Positions 3,407-60,130 of a stretch of DNA of 60,130 bases are shown in pieces. The notes beneath the pieces are model-generated. The model was not told where the DNA came from, did not search any database, and was given only the letters and a program-made list of their open reading frames with translations. Source of the DNA: a virus. A program made the position numbers and the translations under genes. The stretch lies in the IMG/VR virus record IMGVR_UViG_3300006854_000005; one strand, given 5' to 3'. Numbering within the stretch: position 1 is the first letter of the stretch; each line of letters starts with the position of its first letter.

Positions 3407-3576
3407 GACTCCTTGCCTTCCATCGCGTCCTCGATCTCCCTGACGGTGTCGGCGAAGTCGCATGCCGCTCTGCGCAGGGTCCCAAGGTTCGCCGAGTTCC
3501 TGTCCGCTCCGTACTTGCACGCGGCGGAACGTAGAGCCTGCTCAGCGGTGAACAGCTGCTCGATCTTGTCGTTCAT
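3403..3576 (-). CDS. hypothetical protein, 57 aa
   Basis: Below the track cutoff (MNDKIEQLFTAEQALRSAACKYG...). ATGA overlaps at both ends link it to its neighbours. Confidence 0.45.
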   Translation of the reverse strand: MNDKIEQLFTAEQALRSAACKYGADRNSANLGTLRRAACDFADTVREIEDAMEGKES

Positions 3577-4346
3577 TCGGTCTCCGTGCTGTCGAAGCGC
3601 GCGTCGACGTCGCCAACGTGCGTCGGCTCCTCGTCGGTGTCCACGTCTCGTAGCGTTGCCTCGGGCGCGGGCACCGGCTCGGACTGGTCGACCGAGTCGA
3701 GAACACTATCGTCGCCGTCGCACATTGACTCGCGCAGATAGTCGTCCGCGATCTCGTCGATGCGCCGGTTCGTCAGACCGCTAATCGGGTTGACCGAGTC
3801 AGGGTCGTCGATGTCATAGCGCGGAGTAGGCGACAGGCGCTCGCGCTCTCCTGGGACTTCGGTCAATCCCGCATGCCTCGCCACGCTAGCGGATACGTCG
3901 TGACGGGTCTGCTCGTCGATTGCGTCGCACTCCTCGAGGACACGTTCCTTCCAGTCGGGCGCTGGTTCCCGGTCCGGGCAGTGAGCGATCGCGGCGATGA
4001 GCGCGTCCTCGTTGATCTTCGACGGAGCGTCCTGCATGGCGATCTCGCGCTCCAGCCAGCCGGCCCACTCGGCGGCGGCCTGCATGGCGATCTCGCGTTC
4101 CAACCACCCTGCCCACTCGGCGGCGGACTTCGGGTCACCGCTGTCGGCGTGCTTCACGTATCCGGTCTCCTCGGCTGGCGTGCTGAGCGAGCTGTCAGCC
4201 GCGAGCCGCGCCGCGCGCAGTTCGACGCGGTCGGCCTTCGCGGCGCGCCCGAACGAGCGGTTGCTGGTGCAGTGGCGGCAGTCGATGCGCAGTAGCTTGC
4301 CGTCGGCGGTGCATACGCCGATCCAGTCGTGTTGATGCTTGGTCAT
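3573..4346 (-). CDS. hypothetical protein, 257 aa: N-terminal Cys cluster, internal 16-aa tandem repeat, highly acidic C-terminal half
   Basis: Track ORF with a GGGGAAGGGA upstream of the ATG. AAEWAGWLEREIAMQ occurs twice. The C-terminus is rich in D/E. Confidence 0.6.
   Translation of the reverse strand: MTKHQHDWIGVCTADGKLLRIDCRHCTSNRSFGRAAKADRVELRAARLAADSSLSTPAEETGYVKHADSGDPKSAAEWAGWLEREIAMQAAAEWAGWLEREIAMQDAPSKINEDALIAAIAHCPDREPAPDWKERVLEECDAIDEQTRHDVSASVARHAGLTEVPGERERLSPTPRYDIDDPDSVNPISGLTNRRIDEIADDYLRESMCDGDDSVLDSVDQSEPVPAPEATLRDVDTDEEPTHVGDVDARFDSTETE
4032..4127. repeat. 2 x 48-bp in-frame tandem repeat
   Basis: Copy 1 at 4032-4079 and copy 2 at 4080-4127 differ at about 6 positions. 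Five differences are silent; the last one alters only the first residue of the 16-aa unit. Confidence 0.85.
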
Positions 4347-7962: not shown

Positions 7963-8310
7963 TCAAGGCTTCTTCGCACCAAAGCGCCTCGCGATCTGTT
8001 CGACGAGAGCCTTGTCCGCCTCGGATAACTCAGGCCATCTACGGATGAGTTCGCGCAGCCTGTCGTCGAGCAGCGGGACAATTCCACTTGGCGGAGTTCC
8101 GCCGAGCGCAGCCACGATTGCAGGCCATTCGTACGTCCAGATTGCGGTTCCATTAAGGAGCAAGTAGAGATTCTGCCGGGTCATGCCTGCACGGCGTGCC
8201 AGCTCGGCGCGAGTCCACTTGCGATCTGCCAGCCGTCGCGCGATCCAGGCCTTGTCTTCCTTGGTCACGCGGTACGGCGTGCGTGGCGGTTGGTCCTTGG
8301 GGTCCGGCAT
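7963..8310 (-). CDS. CI-like repressor (XRE-family helix-turn-helix)
   Basis: Track ORF 7963..8391 trimmed to MPDPKDQ, with GAGGAAA 8 nt upstream. HTH segment WTRAELARRAGMTRQNLYLLLNG. Divergent from a Cro-like gene. Confidence 0.7.
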   Translation of the reverse strand: MPDPKDQPPRTPYRVTKEDKAWIARRLADRKWTRAELARRAGMTRQNLYLLLNGTAIWTYEWPAIVAALGGTPPSGIVPLLDDRLRELIRRWPELSEADKALVEQIARRFGAKKP

Positions 8311-8340
8311 GCTCGGATTTCCTCGGTAGCACAAGCAGAT

Positions 8341-8389
8341 GCCAAGTCGCCCTTGACTACTCGGACAAGTGTGCCTTACCTTCGTGGTC
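8341..8389 (+). promoter_or_regulatory. PR-like promoter with the same upstream box as PL
   Basis: GCCAAGTC (8341-8348), GCC, then CTTGACT (-35 TTGACT at 8353-8358), 18-nt spacer, TACCTT (8377-8382), then 7 nt to the cro ATG at 8390. No Shine-Dalgarno sequence. Confidence 0.45.
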
Positions 8390-8626
8390 ATGACTGATGG
8401 TCAGCGGCTGATGAAGTGGCGTCTCGCGCGTGGAATCTCACGCCAAAACCTGGCGAAGACCCTTGCGGTCTCTCGGCAGACGATCCTCGCGTGGGAGACC
8501 GGAACGTGGCAGCCGTCGGAGGAGCGATGGCCACAGATCGCGCGCGCACTCGGTCTGCCGGCCCCGAAGCAGCCCAAGCGGCTCGCACCGATTCCCGTGC
8601 CCCCTGCCACGCGGGTAGCTCAGTAG
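8390..8626 (+). CDS. Cro-like XRE-family HTH regulator
   Basis: Track ORF 8369..8626 trimmed to MTDGQRLMKW. HTH segment ISRQNLAKTLAVSRQTILAWETG. Divergent from the repressor gene. Confidence 0.7.
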   Translation: MTDGQRLMKWRLARGISRQNLAKTLAVSRQTILAWETGTWQPSEERWPQIARALGLPAPKQPKRLAPIPVPPATRVAQ

Positions 8627-8849: not shown

Positions 8850-8880
8850 AGTGCGGTGACGAGCGGGTCGCACTTTCTCT
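8850..8880 (+). terminator. weak hairpin plus T-rich tract (tR1-like candidate)
   Basis: AGTGCG (8850-8855) pairs with CGCACT (8869-8874) around a 13-nt loop, followed by TTCTCT. It lies in the 270-nt gap between cro and the RNA ligase gene. Confidence 0.25.
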
Positions 8881-8896: not shown

Positions 8897-9982
8897 GTGG
8901 AAAACCTCGTCCAGCGTCTGATGTCGAGCCGCGCCGATTGGCTCGAGCACCTCGAGAACGACCTGCACATCTCGGTCGTGCGCGACGGCGACCTCGCCTC
9001 GCTCAAGTACAACCAGCTCGAGTCGCCGATGGCCGACCCGATGGTGCAGCAGTGCCGTGGCATGGTCGTCGACTGCGCGAAGCGGCGCGTGCTGGCGTGG
9101 CCGTACAACAAGTTCTTCAATCACGGCGAGCACCTCGCGACCCCGATCGACTGGGCGACCGCGCGTGTGCAGGAGAAGCTCGATGGGTCGCTGATGATCC
9201 TGCACGTGCGCGACTGCATCTGGTCGGTCGCGTCGAGCGGCCATCCGACAGCCGGTGGCTCCTTCGGAAGTGACGCTCGTACCTTTCGCGAGGCGTTCTG
9301 GAAGGTCATGAGCGACCAGGAGATCGACACCGACGAACTGGACGCGCGCGCCACGTACATGCTCGAGCTGTGCGACTCGCCGAACCGTGTCGTCGTCCGC
9401 CACGAGAAGCCACGCCTAGTACTGCATGGTGCCAGGTGGCTGGAGTCGGGCGAGGAGTTCCTTCCTAGCGCGCTTCACAACGCCGGCAACAGCGCGGGGC
9501 TCGAAGTCGTGAACGAATTCGGCATCGCTTCGATCGACCAGTGCCTGTCCGCCGCCGAGGCGCTCGACCCTCTCAAGCAAGAGGGGTTCGTCGTCGTCGA
9601 TGCCGAGTTCAACCGCGTCAAGATCAAGTCGCCGCGCTACGTCATCCTGCACCACCTCAAGGGTGAGGCAACCCCGCGGCGCGCGATCGAGCTGTGGCAG
9701 ACCGGCGAGACCGAGGAACTGCTCAACAGCTTCCCCGAGTTCAAGCCGGTCATCGAGCCGATTCAGGCGGACCTGGACCTGATCGCCGAGCAGTGCGTGA
9801 AGGACTTCGAGGAGAACATGCCGCGCGCGAGCCGCAAGGAGTTCGCGATGGCCGTGAAGGATCGGCCGTGGTCGTCGGTGCTGTTCAGGATGCTCGGCGA
9901 GGAGCGGCACGACGTGGAGACCGCGAAGGCGATCATGCGGCGCGGCTCGCTGCAGAGCCTGGAGAGGATGCTCGGGCGATGA
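8897..9982 (+). CDS. ATP-dependent RNA ligase (Rnl1/Trl1-like nucleotidyltransferase)
   Basis: 361 aa. Motifs: KFFNHGE, then motif I EKLDGS, motif III YMLELCDSPNRVV, motif IV EGFVVVD, motif V RVKIKSPRY. The GTG start could instead be the ATG at 8921. Confidence 0.8.
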   Translation: MENLVQRLMSSRADWLEHLENDLHISVVRDGDLASLKYNQLESPMADPMVQQCRGMVVDCAKRRVLAWPYNKFFNHGEHLATPIDWATARVQEKLDGSLMILHVRDCIWSVASSGHPTAGGSFGSDARTFREAFWKVMSDQEIDTDELDARATYMLELCDSPNRVVVRHEKPRLVLHGARWLESGEEFLPSALHNAGNSAGLEVVNEFGIASIDQCLSAAEALDPLKQEGFVVVDAEFNRVKIKSPRYVILHHLKGEATPRRAIELWQTGETEELLNSFPEFKPVIEPIQADLDLIAEQCVKDFEENMPRASRKEFAMAVKDRPWSSVLFRMLGEERHDVETAKAIMRRGSLQSLERMLGR

Positions 9983-10368
9983 AATCCGCCGCATCCCCCA
10001 AAAAGGTCCCCAATTCGGGGAGTAAATCCGGCGATCGGGCGGGAAACATCCCCAGGCGCGGTCGTCCGCTCGGCGCCGTCGATCGCCACGGGCGCGCGCA
10101 TCGAGCGCAGATTCGCCTCGGTACCACCGTGTGGCGCTCGTTCTGCGTCGCGTTCGGACGTCGACTCGATCAGCTGATGGCCGAGCGGGACATCGCCGCT
10201 ACCGAGTTGGCCGCGGCGATTGGGCAGCACGAGCAGTCGATCCATCAGCTGCGGCGCGGCATGCGGATGCCGCACATGGTCACGCTGGCTGCGATGAGCG
10301 AGGCGCTCAGCTGCGCGCTCGTGGACCTGCTGCCTGAGCAGGCGCATGGCGCGGGAGGTGGTGTGTGA
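9979..10368 (+). CDS. XRE-type HTH DNA-binding protein with basic N-terminal tail
   Basis: Track ORF 9694..10368 trimmed to MKSAASPKK (ATGA overlap). HTH segment IAATELAAAIGQHEQSIHQLRRG. Confidence 0.6.
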   Translation: MKSAASPKKVPNSGSKSGDRAGNIPRRGRPLGAVDRHGRAHRAQIRLGTTVWRSFCVAFGRRLDQLMAERDIAATELAAAIGQHEQSIHQLRRGMRMPHMVTLAAMSEALSCALVDLLPEQAHGAGGGV

Positions 10369-10733
10369 GGCGCTTCGTCTACTACATGGCGCACCCACTG
10401 GGTGGTGACGTCGACGTCAACATGAAGCGGGCTGGGCGATGGCTGTCGTGGTTGCGACGGACGTTCCCGAAGGTCACGTTCATCGCGCCGTGGATCGCTG
10501 CAGTGATGTCGGGTGAGAGCGACGACGATCCAGCGCAACGCGAAGCGGGGCTCGTCGATGCGGTAGCAGTCGTGGCCGTATGCGACGGCGTTGTCATGGT
10601 CGGTGGGCGCATCTCGTCGGGCATGGAGCGCGAGCGCCAGGCGGCGTCATGGGAGCTGGACCTGACCGACCTCGGCGATGAGCCGCCTGCCGACTTCGAG
10701 CAGTGGACACGAACCCCGGTGTGGTGGATATGA
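10365..10733 (+). CDS. DUF1937/DUF4406-like protein (nucleoside 2-deoxyribosyltransferase-like fold)
   Basis: 122 aa. Family-like pattern YYMAHPLGG..N..RA.., FIAPWI, CDGVVMVGGRISSGMERE. GTGA-coupled start. Confidence 0.5.
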   Translation: MRRFVYYMAHPLGGDVDVNMKRAGRWLSWLRRTFPKVTFIAPWIAAVMSGESDDDPAQREAGLVDAVAVVAVCDGVVMVGGRISSGMERERQAASWELDLTDLGDEPPADFEQWTRTPVWWI

Positions 10734-10984
10734 CCGCCTCCTACTTCGACCACCTGACCACGCCTCGCCACCAACACGTCCCCGACAGCGATGGCCTGTG
10801 CACGTACCTGCTGGTCGTCGACGGGGCGTTCGTGCAGTCACTGTCGCCCGTCAAGACGACGCTGTCGGATCTCGAGGCTATCGCGTTCCTGTGGCCGCAC
10901 TCGGAGGCGGAGAAGTGGTTCCGCGAACTGGTGGAGCGGTGGCCGTACCTGAGAGGCGCGCAGGCGGTGAGGGGTAGACCGTGA
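10730..10984 (+). CDS. hypothetical protein, 84 aa
   Basis: Track ORF 10703..10984 trimmed to MTASYFD (ATGA overlap). Confidence 0.5.
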   Translation: MTASYFDHLTTPRHQHVPDSDGLCTYLLVVDGAFVQSLSPVKTTLSDLEAIAFLWPHSEAEKWFRELVERWPYLRGAQAVRGRP

Positions 10985-11580
10985 TCGCGGCACTGTACGT
11001 CGAGCGGGGCGGCGTGTACTTAGGACTCGACGGCGTCGATCCGTGGGACGAGTCGCGCGATGCGAGGCTGTACGCTGGACCGTGGCCGGTCGTGGCACAT
11101 CCGCCGTGTGAGCGATGGGGGCGGTGGGCCGGCGAGATGGCGGGGCAGGACAACGGCTGTTTTGAATCCGCGCTGAGATCGGTGCGGACATGGGGGGGTG
11201 TGCTGGAGCATCCTGAGGCGTCGCTCGCCTGGCCGGTCTTCGGACTGATCCGTCCGCTTCGGGGCGGAGGGTGGTCGGCTGCCGGAGACGGCATCGGGTG
11301 GACGTGCTGCGTGGAGCAGGGGCACTACGGCCATCGAGCTCGTAAGGCTACTTGGCTGTACGCGGTCGCCAGCACTCTTCCAGCGCTAACATGGGGGCGC
11401 AGCGATCCAGCGATCAGGCCACGTCCGGGACGTGACCCGAAGCGAGAGCGCCGCATCGGAGCGGTCCAGCGGATGTGCCGCAAGGAGCGCCGGGCCACAC
11501 CGGTGCCATTCCGGGATGAGCTGCTCGCGATCGCGAGGTCCGCCGCACCACGACTTCCGCTCGCACTTGAGGCCGCATGA
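10981..11580 (+). CDS. hypothetical 199-aa protein with C5-pyrimidine-methyltransferase-like motifs (HPPC, LEHP, GHRARK)
   Basis: VVAHPPCERW resembles motif IV (PC), VLEHPEAS resembles motif VI (ENV), HYGHRARKATW resembles motif VIII (QxRxR), and RRATPVPFRDELL resembles the C-terminal motif. It is too short to hold a target-recognition domain. GTGA-coupled start. Confidence 0.3.
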   Translation: MIAALYVERGGVYLGLDGVDPWDESRDARLYAGPWPVVAHPPCERWGRWAGEMAGQDNGCFESALRSVRTWGGVLEHPEASLAWPVFGLIRPLRGGGWSAAGDGIGWTCCVEQGHYGHRARKATWLYAVASTLPALTWGRSDPAIRPRPGRDPKRERRIGAVQRMCRKERRATPVPFRDELLAIARSAAPRLPLALEAA

Positions 11581-11750
11581 CCAGCACCACCGCTCGCATC
11601 TTCTCGACCCTCCTCGTCGCGTTCGTCGTCGCCGTCTACGTCACGCTGTACGTCATCGCCGGTGCGTGGCCGATCGTGGCGCTGGCGGTATTCGGTGGGA
11701 TGTTGATCGCCGCGGCGGTTGGCGGGCTCAGATACGACGGGGCGCCGTGA
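11577..11750 (+). CDS. small two-helix membrane protein, 57 aa
   Basis: Below the track cutoff. MTSTTARIFSTLLVAFVVAVYVTLYVIAGAWPIVALAVFGGMLIAAAVGGLRYDGAP. ATGA and GTGA overlaps at its ends. Confidence 0.45.
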   Translation: MTSTTARIFSTLLVAFVVAVYVTLYVIAGAWPIVALAVFGGMLIAAAVGGLRYDGAP

Positions 11751-12511
11751 TCCACTACCACGGCGGACCCGTCACCCCGAACGACGCAGCGGTCACGCTG
11801 TGGACGCGGCGGCATGCGCTGGTCTCGTTCGAGGAGCAACGACAAGCAGCGCTCGCGTTCGAGATCGCGCAGACCGTGCTGCTCGACAACGGGGCGTTCT
11901 CGCTCTGGCAGGACGGTGGTGGTGATGTCGATGTCGCAGCCTACGGCGACTGGGTCTGCGAGTGGCACCTCCATCCGGCATTCGATGGCGCCATCATCCC
12001 AGACAAGATCGGCGGTTCGACGTTCGACAACGAGAAGCTGGTCGCGCGCTGGCTCCAGCATCCAGGTCGCCCAAAGCGTGGAATCCCAGTCTGGCACCTC
12101 GACGAGGACCTCGCGAGACTGCGTGATCTCGTGCACAGCGCTACATGTGGGATCTTCCCGGCCGTTGCGCTCGGCTCGAGCGGGCAATGGGCTACGCCAG
12201 GCACCGACTCCTGGTGGTCGCGCATGTCCGAAGCCATGGATGTCGCCTGCGATGAGCTGGGCCGCCCGAGGTGTCGACTGCACGGCCTTCGCATGCTGTC
12301 GCCGGCGATCTTCGCGCATCTCCCACTCGCGAGTGCCGACAGCTGCAACGTCGCTCGGAACATCGGGATCGACAAGAAGTGGACGGGCACATACGCTCCG
12401 CTCACGTCGGCGCAGCGAGCTCTCGTTCTGGCCGAGCGCATCGAACTTTCACCGGCCGCATCGGTCTGGTCGAAGCCCGCGCAAACCACGTTTTCCTTGG
12501 TGGCACCATGA
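11747..12511 (+). CDS. DpdA-like DNA/tRNA-guanine transglycosylase family protein
   Basis: Track ORF 11432..12511 trimmed to the GTG at 11747, giving 254 aa. LLDNGAFS resembles the TGT DSGGFQ catalytic-Asp motif, and ASADSCNVARN resembles the second Asp motif. Coupled (ATGA) to queE. Confidence 0.55.
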   Translation: MIHYHGGPVTPNDAAVTLWTRRHALVSFEEQRQAALAFEIAQTVLLDNGAFSLWQDGGGDVDVAAYGDWVCEWHLHPAFDGAIIPDKIGGSTFDNEKLVARWLQHPGRPKRGIPVWHLDEDLARLRDLVHSATCGIFPAVALGSSGQWATPGTDSWWSRMSEAMDVACDELGRPRCRLHGLRMLSPAIFAHLPLASADSCNVARNIGIDKKWTGTYAPLTSAQRALVLAERIELSPAASVWSKPAQTTFSLVAP

Positions 12512-13119
12512 CGATCTACCCACTCGCGAAGGACGGCGTGTTCTGGACCCTCCAGGGCGAGGGGCATCTTCGCGGCTTCCAGATGGCGTTCATCCGCCTC
12601 GCTGGGTGCTCGGTCGGGTGTGCTCAGTGCGATACCGACTATCGCGTTGATGACAGGGTGAGCGTCGACGGAGTCATAGAGCGACTCATCGCTGTGACGC
12701 CAACCCGATCGCGCGACCGGTGGGCATGGATCACCGGCGGTGAGCCAACCGACCATGACCTGACTCCGCTGCTGCGTGCGCTCCGGTCGGCTGGGTTCTC
12801 GACGGCGCTTGCCACGTCGGGCGTGCGCCGCATGATACCGCCCGTCGACTGGCTGTCGGTGTCACCGCACGGCAACGCGCTGGTCCAGCGCTATGGCAGC
12901 GAGATCAAACTCGTCGACGGACTCGGTGGACTCGACCTCGAGCGGTGGCACTCCGAGAACCCGGACGACTCCAACGACTTCATGTACCGCTACGTCCAGC
13001 CTCTCACGATCGGCGGGGTCGAAAGTAGGTCGTCGCTGCAGCGGTGCATTGACTTCCTGCGCACGCGCCCGAACTGGTCGCTGAGTCGCCAGGACCATCG
13101 GCACTGGAGCGTGGCATGA
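12508..13119 (+). CDS. queE: 7-carboxy-7-deazaguanine synthase (radical SAM QueE)
   Basis: Track ORF 12271..13119 trimmed to MTIYPLAKDG, giving 203 aa. Motifs FWTLQGEG, FIRLAGCSVGCAQCDTDY (CX3CX2C) and WITGGEP. Confidence 0.8.
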   Translation: MTIYPLAKDGVFWTLQGEGHLRGFQMAFIRLAGCSVGCAQCDTDYRVDDRVSVDGVIERLIAVTPTRSRDRWAWITGGEPTDHDLTPLLRALRSAGFSTALATSGVRRMIPPVDWLSVSPHGNALVQRYGSEIKLVDGLGGLDLERWHSENPDDSNDFMYRYVQPLTIGGVESRSSLQRCIDFLRTRPNWSLSRQDHRHWSVA

Positions 13120-13490
13120 CCCCCGCCTACCTCACCACCGGCGTGACGCTGGTCCACACCGAGCAACCATCGACGTGGCACGCACTCCGCGCCGCGTACC
13201 CGGGCGGACGCATCATCACGACCTGCGTGCTCGAGCTGCCGTACGCGAGGGTCAACGTGATGGTCGTGCGACCCGGTGAGCGGTTGCCGTCGAACATCTG
13301 CGGCGCCTGCAGGCGGCATGTGGAGATCGCGATGCACGGGGCGAGTGTTCCGGTCGAGGCGTCACGGGTGGCGACGGTGGATCTGAGGCGCCCGGAGCGC
13401 CCGAGGGCCAGAAGCGAGGAGTGGAGCGAGAGCGCCGTGCCGGAAGTGGTGATGGCGGAGATGACGAGCAGGGGCGCGAGGGCGGGATGA
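13116..13490 (+). CDS. hypothetical protein, 124 aa; last gene of the coupled cassette
   Basis: Track ORF with an ATGA-coupled start. Confidence 0.5.
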   Translation: MTPAYLTTGVTLVHTEQPSTWHALRAAYPGGRIITTCVLELPYARVNVMVVRPGERLPSNICGACRRHVEIAMHGASVPVEASRVATVDLRRPERPRARSEEWSESAVPEVVMAEMTSRGARAG

Positions 13491-13588: not shown

Positions 13589-14530
13589 ATGGACTGGCCG
13601 AACGAGGAGTATGTGAAGGTCTATCGTCGAGAGACTGACGACGACCTCGTCCTTTCCTGGCAGGCCCGCGCGCTGTGGAAGGAGATGCTGGTCAAGTTCG
13701 ACCGGTCCGGTCTGATCGAGACACGCCGTGGCGCCCGCGGGCTCGCCGCGATGGTCCGCTGGCCGCTCGATGTGGTTGAGGTAGCACTGCCTGAGCTCGT
13801 GGAAGACGGCCGGGTGAGGCCGGTTGCTACCGGGTTTTTCGCCCCGAACTTCCTTGAGGCCCAGGAGGCGTCGAAGAGCGACAGGGCCCGACAGCGAGAA
13901 TCCAGGCAGCGACGTGCGTCGACCGCGAATCGCGCAGTTACCCCACAAATCTGTCACGACGACACGCCATCACGTGACCAGACGTCACGCGGCCCCGAAG
14001 CGCCGGACGAAACGTCACAAGTTGTCACTCTATCCTCTGCTGATCCTAACCCTCTGCTGAGCGAGCCTCGCGCGCGCGAGATCCCACCTACTGCCGTACC
14101 GAGTACCGGGTACGACGCAGAGAACCCACGTCAGCGTGGCGCCCTAGCCGAGAGCACGTTTGCTCGCGTGAGCGAGGCGAGACTCGATCTCGCCCGGGAA
14201 TTCGGGCTTCCTGAACAGCTGCCGTTTCCTACTGTCACCCCAGGGTCACAGCCACAGGCGTTCCGCGACCTATGCGACAGAGTCCGCGAAGAAGGCTCAA
14301 GCGCGCCCCTGGTGTGCAACGTAGTCGTCGAGTCACTGATCGCGGAGGCCCGTAGAACCAGAAGCGTGGAGTGGGTTTCCCTCAAGGCATTCTCTAGCGG
14401 GGCCTGGAACACAGCACGAGAGCGGGTGCCCGGCTGGAAGAAGTCTCGAGCCGGACCCGCATCGCTCCGAATCTCATCGCCGTCCGACGACCCCGACCTC
14501 AGCAACGACCCGTTCGCTCCACGCCCATGA
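13589..14530 (+). CDS. replication initiator/organiser-like protein (N-terminal winged-helix, low-complexity linker)
   Basis: 313 aa, directly upstream of and coupled to the helicase ORFs. The linker region carries iteron-like repeats. Confidence 0.45.
   Translation: MDWPNEEYVKVYRRETDDDLVLSWQARALWKEMLVKFDRSGLIETRRGARGLAAMVRWPLDVVEVALPELVEDGRVRPVATGFFAPNFLEAQEASKSDRARQRESRQRRASTANRAVTPQICHDDTPSRDQTSRGPEAPDETSQVVTLSSADPNPLLSEPRAREIPPTAVPSTGYDAENPRQRGALAESTFARVSEARLDLAREFGLPEQLPFPTVTPGSQPQAFRDLCDRVREEGSSAPLVCNVVVESLIAEARRTRSVEWVSLKAFSSGAWNTARERVPGWKKSRAGPASLRISSPSDDPDLSNDPFAPRP
13950..14060. repeat. iteron-like repeats inside the initiator gene (candidate ori)
   Basis: GTCAC at 13953, 13984, 14014 and 14024, inverted GTGAC at 13974, and the CACGTG palindrome at 13971. 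CCTCTGCTGA occurs twice (14034-14043 and 14051-14060). Local drop in GC. Confidence 0.4.
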
Positions 14531-14901
14531 TCATCTCCGACGAAATAACCGAGCATAGACTCATCGTGGCGCTCCTCACCGAGCCAGATGTGCTGCGCGC
14601 CGCCTCGATCGTCGAGACGCGCTACTTCACCGACTTCAGGTATTGGGTTGTGTTCGCGGCGATTCGTCAGCTCGAGACCGAGGGGGCCGACGTGAGCGTG
14701 CTGGATGTCGACGACGTGCTGGCGGTCCGTGATCGCACGTATCGCTCGTTCCTGCGCCCGCAATGCGGCGCCGCGTTCCTTGGCGATCTCGTGATCGACG
14801 CTGCGCCGTACAACGGCAAGCGCGTGCTGTGGGAGCACGACATGTGGTGGCTGCGCGAGCTTCGCCGGCGACGCGAGAAGTTGGAGGACGCTTGGCAGTG
14901 A
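14527..14901 (+). CDS. DnaB helicase N-terminal-domain protein (stand-alone)
   Basis: 124 aa. DnaB_N-like pattern E..L...LL.EP, F.D.R....F.AI..L...G..V. ATGA-coupled start. Confidence 0.55.
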   Translation: MIISDEITEHRLIVALLTEPDVLRAASIVETRYFTDFRYWVVFAAIRQLETEGADVSVLDVDDVLAVRDRTYRSFLRPQCGAAFLGDLVIDAAPYNGKRVLWEHDMWWLRELRRRREKLEDAWQ

Positions 14902-15914
14902 GCAACGGAATCGGCACCAGCATCGATGGTTTCGAGCCCGCACCGGCCAGGCTTGTCGGCGAGCAGTGGGAGCGCATCGAGCGTGGCAAGCAGCGGCTGT
15001 GGTATCGCGTCAGCTTCCTCGACGACTACCTGCGCGGCATCGCGCCGAACGACCTGATCCTTCTCGGGGCGCCGAGTGGCATGGGCAAGACGGATCTGGC
15101 ATTGAACATCGCAGCGTCGAATGCGATGGAGGGAAAGCGCGTGCACTACTTCGCCCTCGAGGCCGAGCCGCGCGAGCTCGAGCGGCGCACCAAGTACGCG
15201 ATCATCTCGCGCGAGGTCCACCGCTCGAAGCATCCCGAGCGCGAGCGGTTGAACTACAGCGATTGGGTATTCGGCGATCTCGAGGACATCTGCGGCCCGT
15301 TCAACCGGATCGCGGACGATCGCATGCTCGAGATGCTCTGTGGCCTGCAGACGTACTACCGCGGCGTGCGCTTCACGACGGACCACCTGCAGAAGGCGGT
15401 GCTGGCCGTGTTCGAGCGCTCGAAGCTGATCGTCGTCGACCACCTGCACTACATCGACACCGACGACGAGAACGAGCACCGCGCGCTCGGCGACACCGTG
15501 AAGACGATACGTGACATCTCACTGCGCATCGGCGTGCCGATCATTCTCGTCGCCCACCTGCGCAAGCGCGACCCGCGCGCGAAGCAACTGATCGCGTCAC
15601 TCGACGACTTCCACGGCTCGTCGAATATCGTGAAGATCGCGACGCAGGTGATCGCGATCGAGAAAGCGACGTGCGTTGAGTCCGACAAGTGGTACGTCGC
15701 GCCGACGTTCATGAGCGTGCTCAAGGATCGTCGGGGCGGGGCGTCACCGTACGTCGCGGTTGCTCAGTATGACATTCGGACGAAGGGCTACGAACCGAAG
15801 TACTCGCTCGGCAAGATCTCCGGTCAGGAGTGGACGCCGATCGAACTCCACGACAAACCGCGCTGGGCCGAGCACTACTCGCCGGGCCAGATCGCAACAG
15901 AGAGGACGAAGTGA
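14898..15914 (+). CDS. DnaB-like replicative helicase, RecA-type ATPase domain
   Basis: Track ORF 14763..15914 trimmed to the GTG at 14898 (GTGA overlap). Walker A GAPSGMGKT, Walker B LIVVDHLHYI, and ILVAHLRK. Confidence 0.75.
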   Translation: MSNGIGTSIDGFEPAPARLVGEQWERIERGKQRLWYRVSFLDDYLRGIAPNDLILLGAPSGMGKTDLALNIAASNAMEGKRVHYFALEAEPRELERRTKYAIISREVHRSKHPERERLNYSDWVFGDLEDICGPFNRIADDRMLEMLCGLQTYYRGVRFTTDHLQKAVLAVFERSKLIVVDHLHYIDTDDENEHRALGDTVKTIRDISLRIGVPIILVAHLRKRDPRAKQLIASLDDFHGSSNIVKIATQVIAIEKATCVESDKWYVAPTFMSVLKDRRGGASPYVAVAQYDIRTKGYEPKYSLGKISGQEWTPIELHDKPRWAEHYSPGQIATERTK

Positions 15915-16510
15915 CCAAGAAACACAAACAGACCCGCCGCTCGGTATCGCTCTCGAGCGAGATCTACCAGGACGGCGTCGACTTCGCTGCGACCCACGGC
16001 ATCTCGCTGGCACAGGCCGCGGCTCGAGGTCTCCGCGCCGTGATAGACGGCGAGATTCCGCTCGGCCCGGTGATGTCGTCGTTCGACGCCGGCATCGCCA
16101 CGAAGCGGCGCCGCGGGATCGTGCCGCTCATCGAGCCGAACCCAGCGCCGACCGTCGTTCTGTCTCGCGAGGAACTGGACGCCAGATGTGCTGCGCGCGA
16201 TGCCGAGCGCAAGCGTCGCGACGAGGAGCGCGTGATCGCCGCACGGGCCGCGGCTGCGCCACCCGACGCTGGCCTATCTCGCTTTGTGGCGCTTGCCGTG
16301 TCCGATCCGACTGCGTCGCTCGTTGACGACCAGCTCGAGCGCGCCGCAGCAGACGGCGTTGCTCTGACCGACGGTGAGGTGTTCGACGGGGCAATCAATC
16401 GCATGCTGGACCAGGTCGGGCTCGAAGCAGCGGCCGGTGCGCTGTGCGCGAACTGCCTCGAGTCGGACCTGTGCCGGTGCAACGGGCACCGAAGTGCGGT
16501 GGGGCGATGA
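15911..16510 (+). CDS. hypothetical protein with ribbon-helix-helix-like N-terminus, 199 aa
   Basis: Track ORF 15830..16510 trimmed to the GTG at 15911. RRSVSLSSEIYQDGVDFAATHGISLAQAAARGL. Confidence 0.45.
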   Translation: MTKKHKQTRRSVSLSSEIYQDGVDFAATHGISLAQAAARGLRAVIDGEIPLGPVMSSFDAGIATKRRRGIVPLIEPNPAPTVVLSREELDARCAARDAERKRRDEERVIAARAAAAPPDAGLSRFVALAVSDPTASLVDDQLERAAADGVALTDGEVFDGAINRMLDQVGLEAAAGALCANCLESDLCRCNGHRSAVGR

Positions 16511-16650
16511 GAGCACCCGGTTCCGACGTCATCGCCCGCCTGTTCTGCGACGGGGCGAGCGTCTCCGATCTGTCGTACAAGTTTCGAACGAGCCCGGACG
16601 TGATCGAATCGGCGATCCGGCGGCAATTGAACAAAGCGAGGAAGCGGTGA
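16507..16650 (+). CDS. small HTH-like protein, 47 aa
   Basis: ATGA-coupled start. MRAPGSDVIARLFCDGASVSDLSYKFRTSPDVIESAIRRQL. Confidence 0.4.
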   Translation: MRAPGSDVIARLFCDGASVSDLSYKFRTSPDVIESAIRRQLNKARKR

Positions 16651-16820
16651 TCGCCCGCACCGAGAACTACGGCCACGGTTGGCGCGTCCTGCTCGACCTG
16701 GGCGGCGAGGAGTGGGTGTTCCGCATTGAGTGCGCCATCAAGCTGCGTGACGCGTTGACCGCGGCGATCGACGAGGCCGCAGCGATGTCCTGCCTTGAGC
16801 AGGCGGAGGATAAGCGATGA
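16647..16820 (+). CDS. hypothetical protein, 57 aa
   Basis: GTGA-coupled start within track ORF 16374..16820. Confidence 0.4.
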   Translation: MIARTENYGHGWRVLLDLGGEEWVFRIECAIKLRDALTAAIDEAAAMSCLEQAEDKR

Positions 16821-17068
16821 GTCAGAAGTTCAAAGTCTGGCGGACCGTCGTCGGAGACGAGGCTGTGACCGTTGAGGTCGAGGCCCACGATGCCTGGAAC
16901 GCGGCGCGGCAGTTCGCCGAGCGTGAGTGGTCAGAGGATCAGGACAACACATCTATGGAACTGGAGATCGAAGACTCGTTCGGCAAGCGGTACGAGTCCG
17001 AGGTTGAAATCGAGATGGTTCCGGACTTCGATGTGTCTCTCCGGGCGAAGAGAACCGGCCCCCCATGA
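16817..17068 (+). CDS. hypothetical acidic protein, 83 aa
   Basis: Track ORF with an ATGA-coupled start. Confidence 0.5.
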   Translation: MSQKFKVWRTVVGDEAVTVEVEAHDAWNAARQFAEREWSEDQDNTSMELEIEDSFGKRYESEVEIEMVPDFDVSLRAKRTGPP

Positions 17069-17307
17069 AACCCAGCTACTCCAAGCGCACCGTCGACGAG
17101 GCGGTGCAGTTGCTCGATGTGTATGCGAGTCAGGAACGCGGCGCTGGCTGGATGCCACTGGTCAGCGTGGGTCACGCGCTCGGTGTCCAGCGATCATCGA
17201 GGACGCTGGCCTACAAGGCGCGCGGCTTGCCATGTGCCAACCTGGAGAAGACGCGCGAGGATGCCCTCGAAGCCGCCCAGCGCCTCCGCGAAGGGTGGCG
17301 GCCGTGA
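17065..17307 (+). CDS. hypothetical protein, 80 aa
   Basis: Track ORF with an ATGA-coupled start. Confidence 0.5.
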   Translation: MKPSYSKRTVDEAVQLLDVYASQERGAGWMPLVSVGHALGVQRSSRTLAYKARGLPCANLEKTREDALEAAQRLREGWRP

Positions 17308-53313: not shown

Positions 53314-53702
53314 GGTTCTCCTGTCGATGGTAGCAGTTTGCTCAGGCGTTCGCGCGTCGATGTCGTGGTGCCGTCGTCGCAGTAGGACGGATCGATGTAG
53401 CCGATGGACTCGCGCAGCCCGGCACGCATCCGCTCGAGATCCCGGTCCTGCTGCTCGATGACCAGCTTCGCCTCGCCGATCTCGGTGCGGAGCTTGGCGA
53501 TCTCCGCTGGGACGTCGTGCGTCTCGCAGCACTGGCGGACCGGGCACTCGCGCGGCAGGTTGATGCGATCGACCTTGTCCAGCGCACCCGCGAGACACGT
53601 CACGACCGTGCCGAGGTTCTTGCGGATCCACTTCTCGAGCGCGTCGCCGTACATCTTAGGGTCGTGGTACTCCGCGATGAGAGCGCGGGCGTCGGCGGTC
53701 AT
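53295..53702 (-). CDS. hypothetical coiled-coil protein, 135 aa
   Basis: Track ORF 53295..53807 trimmed to MTADARAL (ATGA overlap). Confidence 0.5.
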   Translation of the reverse strand: MTADARALIAEYHDPKMYGDALEKWIRKNLGTVVTCLAGALDKVDRINLPRECPVRQCCETHDVPAEIAKLRTEIGEAKLVIEQQDRDLERMRAGLRESIGYIDPSYCDDGTTTSTRERLSKLLPSTGEPCTTTK

Positions 53703-59786: not shown

Positions 59787-60088
59787 CTCGCTCTCCTTCC
59801 TCTCGGTACCGGATCCATGTCCGGCACCGTCGGTGCTGTCACGTAGTACCCACTCGCCGGCATCAAGCTCCTCGGCACGTTCGGTGTCGTCACGTCGCCA
59901 GCCTTGCTCAGCACCTCTCGCCCCGCATCGGTCACGACCCATAGCTTGCGACCGCGATCGTCGGTGTCGCGCCACTCGGCGAGACCGTGGCGGGCGAAGA
60001 ACTTGAGCTGTGCGCGCTGGACGAGCACATGCTGACCGGCCGCGACGAGACGGAGGCCGGCAATCTGGTGCGGGTGGAGTGGTGTCAC
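59783..60088 (-). CDS. hypothetical winged-helix-like protein, 101 aa
   Basis: Track ORF. Its GTG start lies inside the terminal repeat and overlaps the stop of the 25..516 gene in the circular form. Confidence 0.5.
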   Translation of the reverse strand: MTPLHPHQIAGLRLVAAGQHVLVQRAQLKFFARHGLAEWRDTDDRGRKLWVVTDAGREVLSKAGDVTTPNVPRSLMPASGYYVTAPTVPDMDPVPRGRRAR

Positions 60089-60130
60089 TTGCGGTCTCCT
60101 TGGAACAGCGGACCGTGGTCTCGGTAGACG
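60061..60130. repeat. Terminal direct repeat, copy 2
   Basis: Identical to nt 1-70. Confidence 0.95.

Follow-up and report, generated by a model that had tools for sequence, protein, structure and literature searches.

Do the nine overlapping genes that follow the cro-like gene of a metagenomic phage serve one pathway, or do they only share an operon? The question is raised by IMG/VR virus record IMGVR_UViG_3300006854_000005, whose whole stretch of 60,130 nucleotides (hereafter the window) carries nine open reading frames (ORFs), g1 to g9, packed head to tail on the plus strand between positions 8897 and 13490 (Table 1). An earlier model reading of the letters, made without database searches (the sequence-only reading), took all nine to be probably made as a unit and suggested one composite system, combining DNA hypermodification with RNA repair. 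Comparison with related loci speaks against this. We consider it likely that the region is a mosaic early operon, in which backbone genes are mixed with independently acquired accessory genes, and that only g7 and g8, coding for DpdA and QueE, make up a true unit: a minimal, host-dependent module for 7-deazaguanine modification of DNA.

The nine genes themselves are well supported. All ORFs are in frame and free of internal stops, GC content is 0.72-0.90 at third codon positions (GC3) versus 0.40-0.61 at second positions (GC2) in the nine frames, which is a coding signature for a genome of 66% GC, and an independent gene caller run on the source contig gave these nine genes too, identical in length. 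ATGA or GTGA is present at all eight junctions (9979, 10365, 10730, 10981, 11577, 11747, 12508, and 13116), so the coupling described in the sequence-only reading is real. However, such 4-nt NTGA overlaps join at least 39 of the 73 same-strand neighbours genome-wide (a lower bound, because g5 fell below the GC3 filter and two cassette junctions were therefore not counted). The replication block has eight consecutive ones, at 14527, 14898, 15911, 16507, 16647, 16817, 17065, and 17304, and a related locus, L123, has the same 4-nt overlaps around different genes. g9 is separated from the next gene by 98 nt with no terminator-like site between them. With overlaps this generic and a gap lacking a terminator, the nine-gene boundary is arbitrary. 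Overlaps of this kind are how early genes are packed in this phage lineage, and they do not reflect a shared function.

In the closest relatives, loci L122 and L123, the ligase gene (g1), g4, the membrane peptide gene (g6) and g9 are kept in the same order; a 66% identical copy of the helix-turn-helix (HTH) gene g2 follows the ligase in L123 and is not found in L122. The g1 product is 81% identical in these two loci and 63% in L124 and L125. g9, always located just 5' of the replication genes, is 68-72% identical in L122 and L123 and 35-42% in L119 and L120. g3, g5, g7 and g8 are missing from L122 and L123, and their slots are occupied by genes for Cys-rich zinc-ribbon-like proteins and by another ORF, joined by 4-nt overlaps again. 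GC3 is 0.87-0.90 in g1, g4, g6 and g9, which are highly conserved in the closest relatives, 0.72-0.81 in g3, g5, g7 and g8, which those relatives lack, and 0.78 in g2, shared with L123 only. The lower GC3 of the genes missing from the relatives is consistent with their later acquisition. Judging from this comparison, g1, g2, g4, g6 and g9 appear to form the conserved backbone of a promoter-proximal, variable early-right operon, with g1 as its first gene, while g3, g5 and the g7-g8 pair appear to have been dropped into its slots. Since the relatives vary in this region, and Mom-like, Dam and N6_N4 methyltransferase genes are located in the equivalent operon of other relatives, we regard it as a set of accessory-gene slots which often hold DNA-modification genes.

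No conserved co-occurrence of the neighbours was seen in a wider survey of DpdA-family and g5-family loci either. All nine proteins were used as tblastn queries against 114 loci with relatives of g7, drawn from genomes in IMG/VR and GTDB: the ligase, g3, g4, g5, g6 and g9 were found in none of them and QueE in eight. Among the 82 loci of the g5 family, named HPPC after its motif, g3 and g9 were each present in two and DpdA in a single one, and clustering of the neighbours of g5 homologues has found no recurrent partner. The sequence-only reading had proposed checking whether the neighbourhood recurs in phages. It does not; the DpdA-QueE combination alone does.

g8 overlaps the g7 stop codon. 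The same order, DpdA (66% identity) followed by QueE (71%), their junction again an overlap, recurs in L208/L209 (9929-11328), where the two genes lie between an N6_N4 methyltransferase gene and an SNF2 helicase gene. As this is a different backbone, the DpdA-QueE unit appears to be mobile. More distant DpdA-QueE pairs are present in L053 and L065, which like L208/L209 are metagenomic phages. We tallied the gene sets of 118 DpdA-family loci, counting in the contig of the window itself and both of the near-duplicates L208 and L209. DpdA stands alone in 99 of them, is accompanied by a QueD-like protein in eight, by QueE in five, by both in three and by both plus QueC in two, with a full pathway including FolE in one; 19 loci in all thus have a DpdA family member next to QueE, QueD-like, QueC or FolE genes. 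In the 2019 catalogue DpdA occurs on its own, together with YhhQ or ArcS, or as part of the full pathway, and a combination of DpdA with QueE only is not among the gene sets tabulated there for 182 viruses (Hutinet et al., 2019).

The QueD-like genes of these loci deserve a separate remark. Genes of this kind, about 100 codons long, adjoin dpdA in many loci of the subgroup (L026:7791-8102, L052:9438-9767, L021, L024, L031-L033, L044, L045, L083). The L026 and L052 proteins have another residue in place of the catalytic Cys of CxxxHGH (DGVLHGH and TGQLHGH), and the full-pathway locus L101 has CGRLHGH. The Cys-less neighbours could be DpdL-like enzymes processing 7-carboxy-7-deazaguanine (CDG) rather than QueD.

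At the level of single proteins the sequence-only reading fared well. The DpdA-like base-exchange enzyme it named is confirmed by the profile match of g7 to the DpdA of phage CAjan, and QueE by the full-length match of g8 to solved QueE structures, with the radical S-adenosylmethionine (SAM) motif kept. Its RNA ligase with all nucleotidyltransferase motifs corresponds to the match of g1 to PF09511 above the cutoff and to the motif alignment with T4 Rnl1, its HTH protein to the HTH_26 and HTH_3 matches of g2, and its small protein resembling the nucleoside 2-deoxyribosyltransferase (NDT) fold to g3, which is Pfam DUF7768 and matches PHROG 355. The two-helix membrane peptide is borne out by g6 hydropathy (Kyte-Doolittle 19-residue mean of 1.5-2.4 over residues ~5-55), and the C5-pyrimidine-methyltransferase-like Cys motif by the C5-cytosine-methyltransferase fold predicted for g5 (Foldseek searches of PDB and BFVD).

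g7 matches phrog_887 with E=4e-55. Its family profile aligns with the validated CAjan DpdA over 168 columns (hhalign, 97.5% probability, E=5e-12), pairing LDNGAFS with LDSGAFS and SADS with SCDS, and CAjan DpdA used as a tblastn query hits the window with E=1e-8. D47 of LDNGAFS and D198 of SADS do not vary among 31-32 family members; we take them to be the catalytic Asp positions of tRNA-guanine transglycosylases (TGT), corresponding to the Asp of the TDSGG-like motif and to the nucleophile. The family has more than 3500 members, and both Asp residues along with about 45 other columns are invariant in the aligned ones. An AlphaFold2 (AF2) model of g7 is a (beta/alpha)8 TIM barrel with a predicted local distance difference test (pLDDT) score of 85. 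phmmer and hmmsearch comparisons of the g7 sequence and profile with PDB sequences gave nothing usable. The closest cultured-phage homologue is DpdA of Pseudomonas phage Epa33 (50% identity). Identity to temperate-phage proteins is 43-47% (46% to those of Salmonella phages BTP1 and SPN3UB, 43% to that of Shigella phage SfI), and that to the DpdA of Salmonella phage 7-11 is 30%; BTP1, SPN3UB, SfI, and 7-11 are listed as "DpdA-only" phages (Hutinet et al., 2019, Supplementary Data 1). By these similarities g7 appears to belong to a short, zinc-motif-free DpdA subgroup seen earlier as "DpdA-only" in temperate phages.

g8 matches TIGR04508 over its full length (E=9e-26) and the phage QueE family PHROG 2076 (E=6e-19). 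Its residues 9-201 align end to end with QueE of Burkholderia multivorans (4NJG, E=1.8e-19), conserving TLQGEG, R-x-AGC, CxxxCxxC, TGGEP and the C-terminal Q-x-H, and a second structure, 6NHL, is matched with E=7.5e-20. The cluster motif of g8 reads C33-x3-C37-x2-C40. The Pfam Radical_SAM score is 20 bits against a cutoff of 29.5. g8 appears to be a member of a divergent phage QueE clade.

In the established pathway GTP is converted via H2NTP and CPH4 to CDG and then to preQ0. A Pfam scan and tblastn searches with queries from phages and bacteria found no FolE, QueD or QueC in the complete genome, and amidotransferases and the YhhQ transporter are absent from it too. One tblastn match to CAjan QueC (53439-53603, E=0.007) is spurious: it covers 68 residues inside an unrelated gene of 135 codons, and no QueC-type SGGxDS-like motif is seen there.

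We infer the substrate, the DNA target and the protective role of the pair as follows. The operon would be transcribed early in infection. QueE (g8) would turn CPH4, made by the host FolE and QueD, into CDG, which the host QueC would most likely convert to preQ0. Once the phage DNA has been replicated, DpdA (g7) would put the 7-deazaguanine base in the place of guanines, so that restriction enzymes cut the DNA less. No DNA polymerase is encoded by the phage itself, in keeping with a modification made after replication. Known DpdA proteins insert preQ0 post-replicatively and shield DNA from restriction, and hosts can feed precursor to DpdA-only phages (PMC6884629; PMC10516641); deletion of dpdA in CAjan leads to the loss of dPreQ0 (PMC6884629). 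DpdA-QueE is probably an anti-restriction DNA-modification unit.

Several observations weigh against this reading. The top 50 PDB matches of the g7 model in Foldseek are generic TIM barrels with no TGT among them, so the TGT relationship is established via the hhalign comparison with CAjan DpdA. g7 has no Cys/His zinc motif, and no Cys is conserved in its family. g8 scores 91 bits against an equivalog cutoff of 240 for TIGR04508 and remains below the NCBIfam cutoffs. The survey of co-occurrence, being tblastn-based, could overlook very divergent partners. The scheme presumes a host that supplies CPH4 and QueC. Phage 7-11, the sole tested relative, whose DpdA is 30% identical to g7, has about 50 dADG per million nucleotides, and the DNA of the DpdA-only phage Orion carries none (PMC6884629). 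No member of the DpdA subgroup to which g7 belongs is known to modify DNA heavily.

The identity of the inserted base leaves room for another scheme, which we consider possible though less probable: DpdA-QueE could write a CDG-derived base (dCDG, dADG or a further derivative), inserting CDG or its amide directly without QueC. The complete genome does encode QueE and no QueC, and within the DpdA family QueC-less sets with QueE (8 loci) outnumber those with QueC (3 loci). The modification of phage 7-11 is dADG and not dPreQ0 (PMC6884629), CDG-derived bases occur in QueC-less phages, and DpdA2 of phage VH7D inserts CDG at low efficiency (PMC10516641). However, all DpdA proteins assayed so far favour preQ0 or preQ1, and CDG insertion is about 40-fold weaker (PMC10516641); besides, a host bearing QueD normally has QueC too, so preQ0 should be at hand. 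In its strictest form, which is doubtful, the pair would be a self-sufficient "CDG writer" needing only CPH4 from the host, with the short zinc-free DpdA inserting CDG or its amide into DNA. A weaker extension would have g3 or g5 process the inserted base further.

The sparse modification of the 7-11 DNA and the unmodified DNA of Orion (PMC6884629), together with the shortness of g7 and its missing zinc subdomain, would also suit a decayed or repurposed DpdA, as suggested for mycobacteriophage singletons, with the QueE pairing serving, for example, to perturb host queuosine metabolism. We find this improbable, as both residues at the catalytic Asp positions and about 45 columns are invariant in so large a family, DpdA family members are repeatedly linked to Que genes, and the pair has been co-inherited at 66% and 71% identity.

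The RNA-repair part of the sequence-only reading was based on g1. As an RNA ligase, it matches PF09511 with E=4e-17 (63.1 bits, cutoff 28.3) and phrog_562 with E=6e-45, and in alignment with the T4 Rnl1 structures 2C5U and 5TT6 EKLDGS falls on KEDGS, LEL on FEF, EGFVV on EGYVA and KIKS on KIKS. K94 lies within EKLDGS, and motifs I (KxDG), III, IV and V are all present. g1 resembles the ligase of the T4 Rnl1 (gp63)/Pnkp tRNA-repair pathway in belonging to the Rnl1 family and keeping these motifs, but it is only ~20-30% similar to T4 Rnl1 and far under the TIGR02308 equivalog cutoff. It also differs from T4 Rnl1 in its setting, as it heads the operon after cro in a temperate phage and is kept in relatives independently of the modification genes. 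Unlike T4, the phage encodes no end-healing enzyme such as Pnkp: among the non-structural proteins of the complete genome none matched a kinase or phosphatase family in Pfam, Walker A is present in the coding frames only in the DnaB-like helicase, and no phosphoesterase motif was found in the genome. As the genome lacks an end-healing partner, g1 is not tied to DpdA-QueE, and an RNA-repair role is a separate hypothesis.

Similar considerations apply to a tRNA-centred counter-defence, with g7 and QueE modifying tRNA (G34- or G15-type exchange) and the ligase mending tRNAs that anticodon nucleases of the host have cleaved. In its favour, T4 Rnl1, all of whose motifs recur in g1, repairs tRNA, and DpdA proteins have tRNA-guanine transglycosylases as ancestors and carry that name in many records. 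Still, the scheme is very improbable: CAjan DpdA, which g7 matches, acts on DNA, the ligase is not seen together with DpdA-QueE in other loci, and the genome has neither a Pnkp-type enzyme nor a tRNA gene.

Two more acquired genes, g3 and g5, stand outside the pair. g3 matches PF24963 (E=7e-10, 39.5 bits, cutoff 26), as do its homologues, and phrog_355, "nucleoside 2-deoxyribosyltransferase" (E=8.5e-6). It is probably nucleoside-2-deoxyribosyltransferase-like, a relation that rests on the phrog_355 match. phmmer and hmmsearch gave no match among PDB sequences, and g3 as the sole query retrieved no related loci from IMG/VR. Besides being missing from L122 and L123, it adjoins a g5 homologue in L119 and lies near a Mom-like gene in L210. 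The latter locus (L210:8001-9923) belongs to a related temperate phage with a RecT/YqaJ arm and a g3 homologue of 74% identity; the Mom-like gene (PF25680) is two genes 3' of that for DUF7768, and a Dam gene is located farther downstream (L210:15981-16411).

g5 belongs to a very large family, with at least 8000 database homologues at 55-80% identity, none of which has a Pfam domain, and 355 IMG/VR matches; its match to phrog_12600 has E=1e-58. AHPPCxRWGR, GGVLEHP, GHRARKATWLY and ATPxxFRD are invariant in the family. In a Foldseek search of PDB with the AF2 model (pLDDT 91) the top 50 matches were all C5 DNA methyltransferases (best E=6.7e-3, template modelling (TM) score 0.4-0.47, probability up to 0.99), and in BFVD the best named matches were viral cytosine methyltransferases (E 9e-6 to 1e-3, TM score 0.53-0.56). 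The predicted fold thus matches C5 DNA cytosine methyltransferases (M.HhaI, M.HaeIII, DNMT3 and short viral "putative cytosine methyltransferases") and no other family in these two databases. The elements of g5 come in the order Pro-Cys loop, helix, strand ending in E-H-P, R-x-R strand and C-terminal helix, which presumably mirrors canonical motifs IV, VI, VIII and IX/X.

The likeness has its limits. With 199 aa, g5 lacks the helices of the SAM-binding half, and it has HPPCE in place of PCQ and EHP in place of ENV. Its motifs are variants (HPPCE, LEHP, HRARK), the canonical set FxGxG, PCQ, ENV and QxRxR is not found in it, only ~45 residues separate the motif VIII-like and IX-like segments, and a recognisable target-recognition domain is missing. 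No PF00145 match was obtained at E<=0.1 and no match among PDB sequences, and comparison of the g5 profile with the C5 methyltransferase of phage Epa33 was not significant (hhalign, probability 0.1%). What supports the fold assignment is thus the Foldseek result and the order of the motifs. Because the tests at the sequence level fail, we describe g5 as a stripped-down protein of C5-methyltransferase fold and not as a demonstrable canonical family member. g5 probably adds a second, independent DNA mark based on cytosine C5 chemistry. An anti-restriction, DNA-modifying role is plausible for g5 as well as for g7-g8. In phage Epa33 (L003:6001-8830) the gene for the DpdA homologue is directly followed by one for a C5 cytosine methyltransferase of 696 aa, so that DpdA lies beside a cytosine-modification gene.

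That all nine genes form one co-evolved hypermodification and RNA-repair system against host defences, with a shared pathway, is hardly credible and appears to be largely refuted by the comparative data: the genes are contiguous, overlapping and on the same strand, four or five of the nine products have folds of nucleic-acid chemistry, g3 and g5 homologues are adjacent in L119, and undetected 2'-deoxyribosyltransferases might exist in deazaguanine phages (Hutinet et al., 2019), but four of the nine are missing from the closest relatives, no co-occurrence was seen in the 114 DpdA or 82 g5 loci, DpdA-QueE moves alone into another backbone, the overlaps are generic, and GC3 is heterogeneous.

Table 1. 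Features of the window in and around the variable early-right operon
Feature	Coordinates	Strand	Product and place in the operon	Match or conservation
Leftward early arm	7724 to 25, continuing into 60028 to 51148	leftward	includes integrase	
Tyrosine integrase, RecT, YqaJ exonuclease	leftward arm			
cI-like gene	7963-8391	-	HTH protein	HTH_26/HTH_3 matches; 90% identity in L123
cro-like gene	8411-8626	+	HTH protein	HTH_3 E=5e-13; 81% identity in L123
g1	8897-9982	+	Rnl1-type (T4 RnlA-like) ATP-dependent RNA ligase, 361 aa	PF09511, phrog_562
g2	9979-10368	+	XRE/Cro-C1 type HTH protein, 129 aa, basic N-terminal tail	HTH_26 E=3.6e-9; HTH_3 E=6e-5
g3	10365-10733	+	DUF7768 protein, 122 aa; swapped in	PF24963
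g4	10730-10984	+	84 aa; backbone	GC3 0.87; 87-98% identity in L122/L123
g5	10981-11580	+	predicted compact C5-cytosine-methyltransferase-fold protein, 199 aa; swapped in, stand-alone	PHROG 12600
g6	11577-11750	+	57-aa peptide, two hydrophobic helices; backbone	83-85% identity in L122/L123
g7	11747-12511	+	DpdA-family 7-deazaguanine DNA transglycosylase, 254 aa; half of two-gene module	phrog_887
g8	12508-13119	+	QueE (7-carboxy-7-deazaguanine synthase, radical SAM), 203 aa; other half of module	TIGR04508
g9	13116-13490	+	124 aa, CGACRRH motif; backbone, ends variable block	conserved in relatives
Replication block	13589-17307	+	313-aa protein, DnaB-like helicase, others	DnaB_C E=3e-17

Two backbone genes, g4 and g9, had no match in the family searches. 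The window begins and ends with an exact direct repeat of 70 nt (1-70 and 60061-60130). Because of this repeat, and because the source is a 60.2-kb MEGAHIT contig, we regard the genome as complete, circularly assembled and about 60,060 bp long. By its gene content it appears to be that of a lambda-like temperate siphophage, ~60 kb in size. The divergent cI-like/cro-like pair (7963-8626) marks the start of the early-right operon; gene calling in the source collection had missed the cro-like gene. Just 5' of the ligase start lies a weak terminator-like hairpin (8856-8871), but sites of this kind are not commoner than in shuffled sequence. Late genes follow beyond the block with the DnaB-like helicase.

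tRNA scans and an Rfam search of the window found nothing, hence no riboswitch and no phage tRNA. PADLOC, applied to ten proteins, gave weak matches of generic HTH models to g2 and none to the other nine, with no membership in a defence system. Compared by blastn with 50,697 phage records, the region has just two short matches and therefore no close cultured relative. The nearest named homologues are spread over Kofleriaceae, Nevskia, Acidobacteriaceae and Chloroflexota metagenome-assembled genomes and indicate no single host. Outside the operon, the 257-aa product of 3573-4346 (minus strand) contains a perfect tandem peptide repeat, AAEWAGWLEREIAMQ, in two copies.

Among known systems, the pair can be compared with the 7-deazaguanine clusters of Escherichia phage CAjan, Enterobacteria phage 9g and Mycobacterium phage Rosebush, which combine DpdA with FolE, QueD, QueE and QueC or Gat-QueC. 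DpdA and QueE of the window are homologous to the CAjan proteins, their genes are adjacent and co-transcribed, and protection from restriction is the expected role (PMC6884629). The window differs in that QueE is the only partner of DpdA, the DpdA is short and zinc-motif-free, and the carrier is temperate, not a lytic phage of the Queuovirinae type. With the "DpdA-only" temperate phages (BTP1, SPN3UB, SfI, HK106, PEAT2, 7-11) it shares the DpdA subfamily, an accessory gene in the early region and the reliance on precursor synthesis by the host, and the overlapping QueE is what the window adds. The operon as a whole resembles the moron or accessory slots of lambdoid phages (ea, nin-type): small, variable, overlapping genes on the same strand between the immunity and replication genes, which differ between close relatives and are enriched in DNA-modification genes. 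It differs from them in its specific gene content and in having an RNA ligase at its head.

Overall, tight translational coupling in a phage operon is no evidence of a functional system. What the comparison does define is a minimal and mobile DpdA-QueE module in temperate phages, a gene set missing from the 2019 catalogue. It points either to QueE as the flux-limiting step that the phage must boost, or to a singleton DpdA subgroup using CDG-derived substrates. If the pair were a CDG writer, temperate phages would have a deazaguanine mark independent of QueC, and this would explain why DpdA of this subgroup so often stands by itself, or beside QueE or Cys-less QueD-like proteins, and not beside QueC. 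Beside it, the very large unannotated g5 family, with its thousands of members, may represent an overlooked stand-alone DNA-modification enzyme of phages.

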